From: Escherichia coli
GTDB lineage: Bacteria; Pseudomonadota; Gammaproteobacteria; Enterobacterales; Enterobacteriaceae
DNA: 64,000 bases
Assembly (NCBI RefSeq): GCF_003334255.1
Contig: NZ_QOWU01000005.1
Strand: one strand, 5' to 3'
Position 1 is the first letter of the stretch, and every line of letters starts with the position of its first letter. The position numbers and the translations under genes are program-made. Shown here in pieces: positions 4,342 through 9,172 of the stretch. The notes below the pieces were generated by a model. That model worked only from the letters and a program-made list of their open reading frames with translations, was not told where the DNA came from and did no database searches.

Positions 4342-5160
4342 ATGCAGCTGAGAATCACCAGTCGAAAAAAATTCACCGCTTTATTATGCGCTCTTGGGCT
4401 AATTTCCATCGTTGCAATTTGTCCACGTCAGACGGTGAATTTTTTCTATTCGACAGCAGTTCAGATTAAAGACTACATCCACTTCTACGGTTATCGCCCG
4501 GTTAAATCTTTCGCTATTCGCATTCCTGCCAGTTACACCATTCACGGAATAGATGTTTCGCGCTGGCAGGAGCGGATCGACTGGCAGCGGGTGGCAAAAA
4601 TGCGCGATAACGGTATCCGCTTACAGTTTGCTTTTATTAAGGCGACGGAAGGCGAAAAGCTGGTGGACCCCTATTTTTCGCGTAACTGGCAACTAAGCCG
4701 CGAAAATGGCCTGCTGCGCGGGGCGTATCATTATTTCTCCCCGTCAGTAGCAGCGCCGGTTCAGGCGCGATTATTTCTGCAAACGGTGGATTTCTCACAA
4801 GGCGATTTCCCTGCGGTACTGGACGTAGAAGAACGGGGAAAATTATCGGCAAAAGAATTACGCAAGCGGGTAAGTCAGTGGTTAAAAATGGTCGAAAAAA
4901 GTACGGGAAAAAAGCCGATTATTTACTCAGGAGCCGTTTTTTATCACACCAATCTGGCGGGCTATTTCAATGAATATCCGTGGTGGGTGGCGCACTACTA
5001 TCAACGTCGTCCGGACAATGACGGCATGGCCTGGCGCTTCTGGCAGCATTCCGACCGTGGACAGGTAGATGGCATCAATGGTCCGGTGGATTTTAATGTA
5101 TTTAATGGCACGGTGGAGGAGTTGCAGGCATTCGTTGATGGGATTAAAGAAACGCCTTAA
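4342..5160 (+). CDS. yegX: Glycoside hydrolase family 25 (lysozyme-like) protein YegX
   Basis: 272 aa from the second ATG, which has the better SD spacing; N-terminal hydrophobic segment; synteny. Confidence 0.8.
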   Translation: MQLRITSRKKFTALLCALGLISIVAICPRQTVNFFYSTAVQIKDYIHFYGYRPVKSFAIRIPASYTIHGIDVSRWQERIDWQRVAKMRDNGIRLQFAFIKATEGEKLVDPYFSRNWQLSRENGLLRGAYHYFSPSVAAPVQARLFLQTVDFSQGDFPAVLDVEERGKLSAKELRKRVSQWLKMVEKSTGKKPIIYSGAVFYHTNLAGYFNEYPWWVAHYYQRRPDNDGMAWRFWQHSDRGQVDGINGPVDFNVFNGTVEELQAFVDGIKETP

Positions 5161-5211
5161 ATAAGAAGCAGTGATATACTCCCACCAGACTCCCCGGCAG
5201 GAAAAAGACAA

Positions 5212-5958
5212 ATGGAACAAGCGCATACCCAGCTGATTGCCCAACTGAACGAGCGTATTTTAGCGGCGGATAACACGCCGCTTTATATTAAGTTTGCCGA
5301 AACGGTAAAAAATGCCGTGCGCAGCGGGGTGCTGGAGCATGGCAATATTTTGCCCGGTGAGCGTGATTTAAGTCAGTTAACCGGCGTTTCGCGCATTACG
5401 GTGCGCAAGGCGATGCAGGCGCTGGAAGAAGAGGGTGTGGTGACGCGTTCGCGCGGTTACGGCACGCAGATCAACAACATCTTCGAATACTCGTTGAAAG
5501 AAGCGCGAGGTTTTTCTCAGCAGGTGGTATTGCGCGGGAAAAAGCCCGATACGCTATGGGTTAACAAGCGTGTCGTGAAATGTCCCGAAGAAGTCGCGCA
5601 GCAGCTGGCGGTCGAAGCAGGAAGTGATGTCTTTTTGCTTAAGCGTATTCGCTATGTCGATGAAGAAGCGGTATCGATTGAGGAATCGTGGGTTCCGGCG
5701 CATTTAATTCATGATGTTGATGCCATCGGGATTTCACTTTATGACTATTTCCGCAGCCAGCACATTTACCCACAACGTACGCGTTCCCGCGTTAGCGCCC
5801 GGATGCCGGATGCCGAGTTTCAGTCACATATTCAGTTAGATAGCAAAATACCGGTGCTGGTGATCAAGCAAGTGGCGCTTGACCAACAGCAACGGCCTAT
5901 TGAGTACAGCATTAGCCACTGTCGCAGCGATCTATACGTTTTTGTGTGCGAGGAGTAG
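5212..5958 (+). CDS. yegW: GntR/HutC-family transcriptional regulator YegW
   Basis: 248-aa ORF with N-terminal winged HTH (GERDLSQLTGVSRITVRKAMQALEEEG) and UTRA-type C-terminal domain. Confidence 0.85.
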   Translation: MEQAHTQLIAQLNERILAADNTPLYIKFAETVKNAVRSGVLEHGNILPGERDLSQLTGVSRITVRKAMQALEEEGVVTRSRGYGTQINNIFEYSLKEARGFSQQVVLRGKKPDTLWVNKRVVKCPEEVAQQLAVEAGSDVFLLKRIRYVDEEAVSIEESWVPAHLIHDVDAIGISLYDYFRSQHIYPQRTRSRVSARMPDAEFQSHIQLDSKIPVLVIKQVALDQQQRPIEYSISHCRSDLYVFVCEE

Positions 5959-6897: not shown

Positions 6898-7898
6898 ACC
6901 GCCTCCCGTTGTTGACGATATTTCGCCAGCGCTGTGGCATAGCGGTTGAAATCAAGCTGATTTACCGCATCCAGTTCCGCCTTTAACGCAGGATCGATAG
7001 CGTTAATGCCATGCAACGCGCCGCAAATTGCCGTCGCCATAGCACCGATGGTGTCTGTGTCGCCGCCAAGGTTAGCGCACAGGACGGCGCAACGGTTCGG
7101 GTCGGTTTGTGCCAGTTCAACCAGCGCAATGGCGCACGGAACGGACTCAATAGTGCTGGTACCTGCGCCAACGACCTGGTAAAGCTGTTCGCTGGCGGAT
7201 TCGGTGCCGTCGGCATTGCGCACAATTTTCAGCGCAATCTCCAGCCGTGCCTCCAGTGAGGCGCTGAACGTAGTGATGCGTTTTTGCTGGGCATGTCGGG
7301 CAATTGAAGGCAATGAATCAACAATCGCTGACCAGCTTTCTCCGTCAATGGCACGAGAAATCGCCCATGCGATGACTACCGCGCCTGCAACCGCCAGATC
7401 GGATTTATGGGTCGGGCTGGACGCCAGCGCCACATCATCAATAAAGGAATCAACATCGTGCGCCGGAAGCAAACAACCTAATGGCGAGACGCGCATCGCT
7501 GCGCCGTTGGTCACGCCATTGTTTTCCAGTTCAGCAACGGGTTTACCGTCGCGAATGGCGTTAAGCGCAATCTTCGAGGTCGGACCTAGTACGTTTTTAT
7601 TAAAGGCGTCGAAACGCAGCGCCCAGTCGAGAATATTACGCCCAATCAGATCCGGATCGATCTTGCCTTTACGTTCCAGCAACGCATCCGCCAGACACAG
7701 CGCCATCGAGGTATCGTCGGTGAATTCGGCGCGGTTAAAATAACAGGCCGCGTTATTCTCCTTTGGTCCAGGCAGAAAACGGTCAATCCAGCCAAAGTGT
7801 GCTTTAACACGGGTGCGTGGCCAAAGCTCGGAGGGCATCCCCATCGCATCCCCTAACGCCTGCCCATAAAGAGCACCGAGAATACGTTCTGTTTTCAT
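6894..7898 (-). CDS. yegU: ADP-ribosylglycohydrolase-family protein YegU
   Basis: 334-aa ORF, GQALGDAMGMPSE N-terminal motif; 4-bp overlaps with yegV and yegT. Confidence 0.85.
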   Translation of the reverse strand: MKTERILGALYGQALGDAMGMPSELWPRTRVKAHFGWIDRFLPGPKENNAACYFNRAEFTDDTSMALCLADALLERKGKIDPDLIGRNILDWALRFDAFNKNVLGPTSKIALNAIRDGKPVAELENNGVTNGAAMRVSPLGCLLPAHDVDSFIDDVALASSPTHKSDLAVAGAVVIAWAISRAIDGESWSAIVDSLPSIARHAQQKRITTFSASLEARLEIALKIVRNADGTESASEQLYQVVGAGTSTIESVPCAIALVELAQTDPNRCAVLCANLGGDTDTIGAMATAICGALHGINAIDPALKAELDAVNQLDFNRYATALAKYRQQREAV

Positions 7899-9172
7899 TT
7901 AACTTCCCCTTGTGTCAACGCAATATCGCGATCATCGACCTTGATAGCCGTAATTTCGTTGTCGGATTCGCGGAAAAAAATCATGAACAGCACGGCGATA
8001 ATGGCAATCATCACCGCGCCAAAAGTCCACATCCCGGACCAGTTGAAAGTCAGTCCGTTTACCGGTTCCTGATAAGCGAACATCTTTTCCATCATCACAC
8101 CGCCAAGACGATAGCCGAGCAAACTGCCGAAGCCCTGGCAGCAGAGCGTGATCAGCCCCTGCGCAGCGGCACGCATATGCACGGGGGCTTTTTTATCGAC
8201 ATAGATGTAAGCGGTAACGTAGTAAAAATCGTAACTTACGCCGTGAAGCAAAATACCGAGGAACAGTAACGCGTAGGTGAAATATTCATCCGCACTACCG
8301 TAAATAAAGAAGCCATAGCGGATCGCAGCGGTGATCAGACCAAGCAATAATACCTTTTTGATACCAAAGCGTTTAGTGAAAAACGGTAATGCCAGCATAA
8401 AGAATATTTCAGAGAACTGGCCGAGCGTCATCCAGCCGGTGGCGTTTTTCATGCCAACTTCGGTCAGATAACCATTGGCAAAGATGTAATAGAACGCCAG
8501 TGGCATCGCAAACAGGAATGAACAGAAGAAAAAGACGAGGAAGTTTTTATCGCGCAGCAGGATCAGCGCATCCAGGCCGAGCATGACTTTAATATCCATT
8601 TTGCCGGTGCTTTTTGGTGGCGTGTCGGGCAGGAAAAACGCAAACACACCGAGTAGAGCAGAACTTCCGGCGGTAATCAGTAATGGAATATTGGTTGGTG
8701 AGATATCGGCATACCCCAGCATTTGCGGCAAGAATCCACATGCCAGACCGGAGGCAATCCAACCGATAGTGCCCATCACACGAATGCGCGGGAAATCACG
8801 CTCCACATCCGGCACGTTGGCAAAAGCGATGCTGTTAGTCAGCGCAATGGTCGGCATATAGGTTAGCGAGTAGGCCAGCAGTAACGGGAAGAACCCGGCA
8901 AAAGTGGTCTGTTGCGCAGCGAAATACATCAGCACCGCACCAGCGAACATCAATACCGCCAGCACTTTCTGCGCCGAGAAAAAGCGGTCAGTGATGGAGC
9001 CAACCAGAATTGGCGACAGGATCGCCGCAATGGCTGTGCAGGCATACGACCAGCCAATTTCTCCGGCACTAAAACCGCTTTTACTTAACCACAACCACAA
9101 TGGCACAAACCACGCGCCCCAGATAAACCATTCAACAAACATCATGAACGACAGCTTTGCTGTTGTTTTCAT
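7895..9172 (-). CDS. yegT: Nucleoside:H+ symporter-family MFS transporter YegT
   Basis: 425-aa polytopic membrane protein; first gene of an apparent yegT-yegU-yegV operon. Confidence 0.85.
   Translation of the reverse strand: MKTTAKLSFMMFVEWFIWGAWFVPLWLWLSKSGFSAGEIGWSYACTAIAAILSPILVGSITDRFFSAQKVLAVLMFAGAVLMYFAAQQTTFAGFFPLLLAYSLTYMPTIALTNSIAFANVPDVERDFPRIRVMGTIGWIASGLACGFLPQMLGYADISPTNIPLLITAGSSALLGVFAFFLPDTPPKSTGKMDIKVMLGLDALILLRDKNFLVFFFCSFLFAMPLAFYYIFANGYLTEVGMKNATGWMTLGQFSEIFFMLALPFFTKRFGIKKVLLLGLITAAIRYGFFIYGSADEYFTYALLFLGILLHGVSYDFYYVTAYIYVDKKAPVHMRAAAQGLITLCCQGFGSLLGYRLGGVMMEKMFAYQEPVNGLTFNWSGMWTFGAVMIAIIAVLFMIFFRESDNEITAIKVDDRDIALTQGEVK

Follow-up and report, generated by a model that had tools for sequence, protein, structure and literature searches.

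The DNA window analyzed here, meaning the whole stretch of 64,000 nucleotides (64 kb), is part of an Escherichia coli chromosome and carries the operon yegT-yegU-yegV (yegTUV), which encodes a transporter, a hydrolase-fold protein, and a kinase-family protein, together with yegW, the gene of its repressor. YegW was renamed GgaR by Saito et al. in 2024 (PMC10819704), and neither the locus nor its operon structure or regulator is new; an earlier scan of this DNA, referred to below as the preliminary description, was here mostly a correct reading of existing annotation. Genes were called from a list of open reading frames (ORFs) and from the RefSeq annotation of an identical E. coli genome (locus coordinate = window coordinate + 501). 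The 7-kb stretch from 3500 to 10500, which also includes the end of thiD and fbaB, is 100% identical to E. coli strain G1/2, and at least 80% of it is present in 5416 of 5426 complete E. coli genomes, so yegX, yegW, yegV, yegU, and yegT were taken as real genes. The gene order is thiM and thiD (+), yegX (+), yegW (+), yegV, yegU, and yegT (-), and fbaB (+), with the following features in window coordinates:

4342-5160, + strand: yegX, GH25 muramidase-like protein with an N-terminal hydrophobic segment; a neighbour outside the module
5212-5958, + strand: yegW (ggaR), GntR/HutC-type repressor of yegTUV, convergent with yegV
5932-5958, both strands: tail-to-tail coding overlap of yegW and yegV, 27 bp
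5932-6897, - strand: yegV, PfkB/ribokinase-family kinase, presumed 5'-phosphorylation step
6894-7898, - strand: yegU, ADP-ribosylglycohydrolase-fold metal-dependent hydrolase, presumed glycosidic-bond-cleaving step
7895-9172, - strand: yegT, proton symporter of the NHS family in the major facilitator superfamily (MFS), first gene of the operon
9429-10481, + strand: fbaB, beyond a 256-bp spacer from yegT

Neighbouring genes of the operon overlap by 4 bp (yegV/yegU at 6894-6897 and yegU/yegT at 7895-7898). The genes, coordinates, and 4-bp and 27-bp overlaps of yegX-W-V-U-T in the preliminary description agree with both the ORF list and the RefSeq annotation, and its family assignments (YegT to NHS, YegU to the ADP-ribosylglycohydrolases, YegV to PfkB, YegW to HutC-type GntR regulators, and YegX to GH25) were borne out by profile scores and fold. 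The base composition of the region shows nothing unusual.

Relatives of YegU were collected from 1.84 billion cluster representatives, giving 236 at E <= 1e-30 (50%-identity clusters). Among the best 150 relatives, 14 are at least 450 amino acids long, and 13 of these 14 are fusions of an ADP-ribosylglycohydrolase (ARH) domain with a PfkB kinase domain, the hydrolase coming first in 6 and the kinase first in 7; the names attached to the fusion proteins are generic only. The remaining long relative, P0159 (692 aa, from a cluster of 175), is a tandem ARH-ARH protein (Pfam matches at 1e-62 and 1e-40).

Gene neighbourhoods were compared at 79 loci, one genome per species, which are the best-scoring 79 of at least 518 confirmed YegU relatives; ORFs were called around each locus and searched with the five E. 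coli proteins, and the neighbours were clustered. The loci span Enterobacterales, Vibrio, Aeromonas, Gilliamella, Bacillota (Lachnospiraceae, Lactobacillaceae, Bacillaceae, and Dialister), Actinomycetota, Chloroflexota, and others. A YegV-like PfkB gene (at least 100 bits, within 6 kb of the YegU homologue) occurs in 61 of them; in 44 the two genes are immediate neighbours, and in 15 a single transporter gene lies between them. A GntR-family gene is found near the YegU homologue in 54 of the 79. The transporter varies: NHS (YegT-type) transporters occur in 25 loci, all gammaproteobacterial; 20 loci have an NCS1-family permease, which mostly lies between the hydrolase and kinase genes; 15 have a PnuC-family protein, right behind the kinase; and 5 have ECF components, with an ABC system at one fusion locus. 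The known cargoes of the NHS, NCS1, PnuC, ECF, and ABC families include nucleosides, nucleobases, nicotinamide riboside, and vitamins. The transporter is thus swapped between lineages, and the pair of YegU and YegV with a GntR/UTRA regulator is the conserved core. Two fusion genes are likewise adjoined by GntR-family regulators with PF00392 and PF07702 domains. At one of these loci the regulator and ECF components are followed by a PfkB-ARH fusion and then by phosphopentomutase-like, NCS1, and DeoC-family genes, which is a pentose-phosphate context; at the other the regulator stands with an ARH-PfkB fusion and an ABC importer. No further gene family recurs among the neighbours of the 79 loci outside local synteny, and none hints at the aglycone; thiMD, fbaB, and yegS lie beside the module in enteric bacteria only.

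More distant YegU-like genes (35-40% identity) without a PfkB neighbour were also seen, at loci L065, L067, and L078 as well as L054 and L060. Genes of the L065, L067, and L078 type sit behind an ECF S-component, a 270-aa protein with a PurM/ThiL-type AIRS N-domain, fused ECF ATPases, and a T-component, and at L067 and L078 two TonB-dependent receptors come next after the YegU-like gene. Such loci may have another kinase solution or another function. A link of the module to thiamine was rejected: the adjacency of thiMD is limited to enteric synteny, the NCS1 permease resembles CytX only weakly (46 bits against a cut-off of 310), and the AIRS match is to a generic N-terminal domain. A link to vitamin B12 through the TonB receptors of the two distant loci was also rejected, as the similarity is at the family level only (148 bits against a cut-off of 600 bits).

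YegU has the all-helical ARH fold (PF03747), and its 98%-identical E. coli cluster representative, P0001, carries a precomputed PF03747 assignment. In the PDB, the uncharacterised MJ1187 is the closest sequence match (2e-29); ARH3, a Thermus ARH-related protein, DraG, and Tri1 come next, at 1e-16 to 1e-11. An AlphaFold2 model built on 38 homologues (pLDDT 97.1) was compared using Foldseek and gave a TM score of 0.82 to MJ1187 (1t5j) and of 0.72-0.79 to ARH3, DraG, and the Thermus protein. The metal-site motifs E24, T60-D61-D62, and D280-x-D282-T283 align with ARH3 residues that we take to be E41, T76-D77-D78, and D314-D316-T317. In the 38 homologues, D61 and D282 are invariant, T60, D62, D280, and T283 are conserved in at least 90%, and E24 is the majority residue, not near-invariant. 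Because these residues are present and largely conserved, YegU is very probably an active hydrolase, as judged from alignment and model. YegU shares the fold and the two-metal site motifs with ARH3, DraG, Tri1, and MJ1187, but its identity to them is only 20-26%. The characterised members strip ADP-ribose from proteins, poly(ADP-ribose), or O-acetyl-ADP-ribose, whereas the YegU type is linked genetically to a kinase and a small-molecule transporter. In the HMMER alignment, the position of ARH3 Tyr149, which presumably stacks on adenine, is Val in YegU, an indirect hint against ADP binding or hydrolysis of ADP-ribosyl conjugates. Our literature search found no biochemical characterisation of YegU or YegV. 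YegU also matches phrog_6572 (ADP-ribosylglycohydrolase) over its full length at 4e-99; close relatives of YegU are therefore on record from phage or prophage sequences. None of the PADLOC defence-system models was matched by YegX, YegU, or YegV, and a defence role was dropped.

YegV is only distantly related to any characterised kinase, ribokinase being the best match at 5e-16. In both the PDB and NCBIfam the top matches are ribokinases, with E-values of only about 1e-16 to 1e-23 and scores well short of all curated cut-offs; the ribokinase equivalog TIGR02152 gives 82.8 bits against a cut-off of 299.65, and family-level matches include ribokinase, 1-phosphofructokinase, and others. The PfkB motifs are visible in the translation as G53-G54, N202-R-Q-E205 (NxxE), and G266-A-G-D269 (GAGD). 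The pseudouridine kinase model matches at E = 6e-4, and the structure of the Salmonella kinase STM4066 (1TYY) at E = 3e-5 and 26 bits, a value that rules out orthology with that enzyme.

YegT matches the nucleoside permease model TIGR00889 over its full length with 653.1 bits (cut-off 446.1). Its crystal structure, determined at 3.1 A in 2025, has the NupG fold and protonation site, and isothermal titration calorimetry detected no binding of uridine, adenosine, cytidine, or guanosine (PMC11979927). Uptake assays likewise detected no transport of xanthosine, uridine, cytidine, or gemcitabine (PMC11241209). The ribose contacts of NupG, R136, T140, and E264, are identical in YegT, and the base-contact residues differ (PMC8042404). 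YegT thus shares its family, fold, GxxxD protonation site, and ribose-contact residues with the NHS nucleoside:H+ symporters NupG and XapB, but it is only 27% identical to NupG, differs in the base contacts, and has no detected binding or transport of standard nucleosides. On this pattern of residues, YegT probably imports a riboside with a non-canonical aglycone.

The regulator has been studied by chromatin immunoprecipitation on microarrays (ChIP-chip), electrophoretic mobility shift assay, Northern blotting, and reverse transcription quantitative PCR (PMC10819704). In that work, GgaR, which is present at about 20-30 molecules per cell, gave one single ChIP-chip peak in the genome; it bound two probes, one with the 190 bp upstream of yegT and another, to which binding was weaker, with nucleotides 571-869 of the yegT ORF. 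It represses yegTUV about 30-fold, fbaB being unaffected, and yegTUV forms a single 3.3-kb transcript. The "uncharacterised module" of the preliminary description therefore no longer applies to the binding and repression by YegW and the co-transcription of yegTUV (PMC10819704) or to the structure of YegT (PMC11979927). Co-transcription, whose lack had been named there as an argument against a common role, is settled by the published single mRNA. In our profile comparisons, YegW gave near full-length alignments to the PhnF, HutC, TreR, and PhnR models, all below the equivalog cut-offs, and these alignments indicate the layout of an N-terminal winged helix and a C-terminal UTRA-type effector domain.

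The GgaR paper gives no binding motif (PMC10819704). Inspection of the two bound regions revealed a GGTAT(T) repeat and, upstream of yegT, a promoter-like site that the repeat overlaps:

9216-9249, - strand: candidate GgaR operator O1, three GGTATT copies on the yegT strand, overlapping the promoter-like -10
8346-8370, - strand: candidate weaker GgaR site O2, GCTTTGGTATCAAAAAGGTATTATT, inside yegT (ORF nucleotides 803-827)
9227-9256, - strand: promoter-like site for yegTUV, -35 TTCACC, 18-nt spacer, -10 TATTAT, 9 of 12 consensus matches

O1 reads, on the yegT strand from 9249 to 9216, CAAAGGTATTTAAAAGGTATTATTAAATGGTATTG; its GGTATT copies are the complements of 9240-9245, 9229-9234, and 9216-9221, spaced by 11 and 13 nt, and it lies inside the 190-bp probe shifted by GgaR (PMC10819704). 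O2 lies within the second bound probe, ORF nucleotides 571-869 (PMC10819704). The exact sequence AAAGGTATT occurs 3 times in the 64-kb window, each time in one of the two regions bound by GgaR. Upstream of yegT, 23 of the 25 gammaproteobacterial loci keep two or more GGTAT copies while the flanks diverge, and in Vibrio a third element is inverted. Of 22 orthologues compared at O2, 18 retain the first GGTAT and 14 the second; the site falls within conserved codons, and this conservation is weak support for an operator. We propose the GGTAT(T) repeat, a motif new in this analysis, as the candidate GgaR operator. The promoter-like site is overlapped by the repeats, an arrangement that fits repression by occlusion; the promoter and terminator scans gave match counts at chance level and were used for position only. 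A conserved GCGTACCTTAC element was also noticed at 9203-9207 (+) and in the orthologous leaders, in the stretch that runs from the GGTATT repeats to the yegT start codon. Its GGTAC is inverted relative to the repeats, and the element may represent a fourth half-site in inverted orientation or some feature of the leader. The Rfam scan found no riboswitch or other known RNA in the yegT leader.

At the other end of the operon, the overlap of yegW and yegV has the same length of 27 nt in all 20 listed loci from Enterobacterales genera (among them L002-L016, L022, L028, L029, and L064), and yegV-yegW is among the overlapping transcript pairs supported by RNA-seq (PMC12288877). Read-through of yegTUV on derepression could lower the expression of yegW and thereby produce a positive feedback.

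Taken together, we propose, with a probability of roughly 55%, that yegTUV serves the catabolism or salvage of a non-canonical riboside as a substrate-inducible cassette, repressed by GgaR, in which the kinase acts first and the products are ribose 5-phosphate and the aglycone. The linkage, fusions, transporter swapping, intact catalytic motifs, and repeat motif come from this analysis; that yegTUV is repressed and transcribed as one mRNA, that GgaR binds at two regions, and that standard nucleosides are neither bound nor transported are experimental results of others. GgaR would keep the operon off by binding the GGTAT(T) repeat operator over the yegT promoter and the weaker site inside yegT. 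On its release, YegT would bring in the riboside by proton symport, YegV would phosphorylate it, most likely at the ribose 5'-OH, and YegU, a two-metal enzyme of the ARH fold, would then cut at ribose C1 to give ribose 5-phosphate and the free aglycone. We infer a riboside cassette because an importer and a HutC-type repressor recur together with a ribokinase-family kinase and a hydrolase that cuts ribose at C1, and we infer a non-canonical riboside because the importer families carry nucleoside- or vitamin-type cargo and YegT keeps the ribose contacts and rejects the standard bases; what class of substrate is used, which enzyme acts first, and what is produced are conclusions of this kind. 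The uptake, de-ribosylation, and phosphorylation of a nucleoside-like compound suggested in the preliminary description is thus the best supported function, on the basis of linkage, fusions, and transporters, and fits the published work on NupG and YegT (PMC8042404, PMC11979927, and PMC11241209); the order that it implies, with hydrolysis first, is not established.

Several points weigh against the riboside cassette. No substrate has been assigned to any of YegT, YegU, or YegV, and every characterised ARH-fold enzyme, to our knowledge, has an ADP-ribosyl conjugate as its substrate and not a simple riboside 5'-phosphate. The nearest relatives of YegV are ribokinases, which fits hydrolysis first. 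The neighbour counts are based on ORFs and are crude in high-GC genomes and at contig ends, and the 79 loci are the best-scoring subset of the at least 518 relatives. The sole reported effector of GgaR is ADP-glucose and the sole phenotypes concern glycogen and growth (PMC10819704), and the riboside model accounts for these data as side effects only.

The closest competing explanation uses the same proteins in the opposite order: YegU would hydrolyse the riboside to ribose and aglycone, and YegV would be a dedicated ribokinase making ribose 5-phosphate. The ribokinase matches of YegV speak for this order, and the linkage and fusions are compatible with either. However, YegV reaches 83 of the 300 bits of the ribokinase equivalog cut-off, and a second, transporter-tied ribokinase would be redundant because E. 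coli already has one, RbsK. All ARH substrates that we know of bear a phosphate ester on the ribose being cleaved, and uptake of the PnuC type is, by what is known of that family, classically driven by phosphorylation of the transported riboside itself. In the pseudouridine pathway (PsuK/PsuG) and the fructoselysine pathway (FrlD/FrlB), the latter under a GntR-type regulator, the kinase acts first. From these substrates, the existing ribokinase, and the order of these pathways, we consider kinase first somewhat more likely (about 2:1), and hydrolysis first would be a less probable, though serious, option.

The published model places YegTUV in ADP-glucose and glycogen metabolism, with GgaR sensing ADP-glucose and so setting the storage of glucose as glycogen. 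It draws on the release of GgaR from DNA by 10-100 uM ADP-glucose in gel shifts, ADP and glucose having no such effect, on the ggaR deletion, in which yegTUV mRNA rises about 30-fold, glycogen rises 2-3 fold, and growth in M9 glucose is slower, and on an earlier listing of the yegV deletion among low-glycogen mutants (PMC10819704). However, that work demonstrates no turnover of ADP-glucose, its authors assign the genes no function, and only three candidate ligands of GgaR were tried (PMC10819704). Among the annotated neighbour families of the 79 loci there is no recurrent glycogen-gene family, and the module travels in many phyla with transporters of the nucleoside, nucleobase, or vitamin type. 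The ARH fold, as far as the family is known, acts at C1 of ribose rather than on a glucosyl phosphate. If a kinase and a phosphoriboside hydrolase are overproduced 30-fold, nucleotide pools could be upset, for example that of AMP, the main inhibitor of ADP-glucose pyrophosphorylase, and both glycogen and growth could change as a result. The link to ADP-glucose and glycogen is probably indirect, and a direct role seems unlikely to us. We regard as least probable, by a wide distance from plausible, that YegU is a regulatory de-ADP-ribosylase of a protein or nucleic-acid target, like DraG, ARH1/3, or Tri1, with the neighbouring genes incidental. The fold and metal-site motifs common to YegU, DraG, ARH3, and Tri1 are what commends it; but the equivalog matches to DraG and Tri1 are far below the cut-offs (80 vs 337 and 69 vs 490 bits), no ADP-ribosyltransferase is found among the annotated neighbour families, Tyr149 of ARH3 is replaced by Val, the PADLOC models are unmatched, and the translational coupling, repeated kinase fusion, and adjoining transporter indicate small-molecule metabolism.

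The closest working analogues of the proposed riboside cassette are psuKGT and Salmonella STM4065-4067. E. coli psuK (yeiC), psuG (yeiN), and psuT (yeiM) resemble yegTUV in combining a nucleoside-family transporter, a PfkB kinase, and a glycosidase. PsuG acts on a nucleoside 5'-phosphate to give ribose 5-phosphate and base, and fusions of the kinase and the glycosidase exist elsewhere. In contrast to YegU, PsuG does not have the ARH fold, and the transporter is of the CNT and not the NHS family; YegU accordingly falls outside the PsuG (IndA-like) glycosidase family, and the resemblance is a functional analogy, not membership. STM4065-STM4066-STM4067 consists of the same three parts as yegTUV, namely a permease, a PfkB kinase, and a putative ADP-ribosylglycohydrolase, and is presumably controlled by a GntR regulator, STM4068. 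STM4066 is an aminoimidazole riboside kinase, that is, a kinase of a non-canonical riboside, and an STM4067 mutant is attenuated in the pig gut (PMC3161100). The two operons are not orthologous, however; Salmonella has a separate true yegU orthologue with 84% identity (P0107). The frlABCD and frlR genes likewise combine a transporter, a PfkB kinase acting first, a conjugate-splitting enzyme, and a GntR-type repressor, as is well established, but their substrate is an Amadori hexose conjugate split by a deglycase, and frl has no ARH-fold enzyme.

Virtually all E. coli genomes carry these three orphan genes of the best-studied bacterium, and many gut and environmental bacteria share the enzyme pair. 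It is a tentative suggestion, at somewhat less than even odds, that YegU and YegV form a widespread, biochemically undescribed pathway in which the kinase makes a riboside 5'-phosphate that the ARH-fold enzyme then splits; the riboside would be non-canonical, perhaps alpha-linked or modified, and would be available in the gut. If true, this would be the first small-molecule catabolic role for the ARH fold, extending it from removal of ADP-ribose signals to nutrient metabolism. Identification of the substrate would give a function to the three E. coli orphans and their homologues, including the 236 YegU-like clusters and the many homologues in gut Bacillota, and would show whether the published glycogen phenotype is direct. 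As the analogous Salmonella operon affects gut persistence in pigs, the compound may matter for gut colonisation.

The preliminary description had also counted yegX as part of the module, which did not hold up: among the 79 loci, E. coli is the only species in which yegX adjoins the module, lying between yegW and thiD; at this position Citrobacter carries another ORF, of 141 aa. YegX has a GH25 domain (PF01183, E = 5.7e-54, residues 70-245) and matches PHROG endolysin families (up to E = 9e-46, phrog_291); its C-terminal half matches phrog_23704 at 5e-83. The acidic residues visible in GIDVS and LDVEE are candidate catalytic residues, a role assumed from knowledge of the family, and the N-terminal hydrophobic segment, FTALLCALGLISIVAIC, is the one feature from which secretion is predicted. 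Because YegX resembles phage GH25 endolysins, yegX was taken to be a neighbour specific to this lineage and unrelated to the module.

Elsewhere in the window, the sole Rfam match is a thiamine pyrophosphate (TPP) riboswitch (RF00059, 2561-2657, + strand, 71 bits, E = 6.5e-13) upstream of thiM-thiD, which is also annotated in RefSeq. Past fbaB, from about 10538 to 14300 (- strand) and onward, lie an RbtT/DalT-family MFS transporter, an FGGY pentulose kinase, a short-chain dehydrogenase/reductase-type oxidoreductase, and a LacI regulator, which together look like a pentitol (ribitol/arabitol-type) utilisation locus; in K-12, this position is presumably occupied by the gat genes. At the start of the window (1-613; L001 1-1114), an IS1A-family transposase adjoins a truncated fimbrial-protein pseudogene just upstream of rcnB-rcnA-rcnR.

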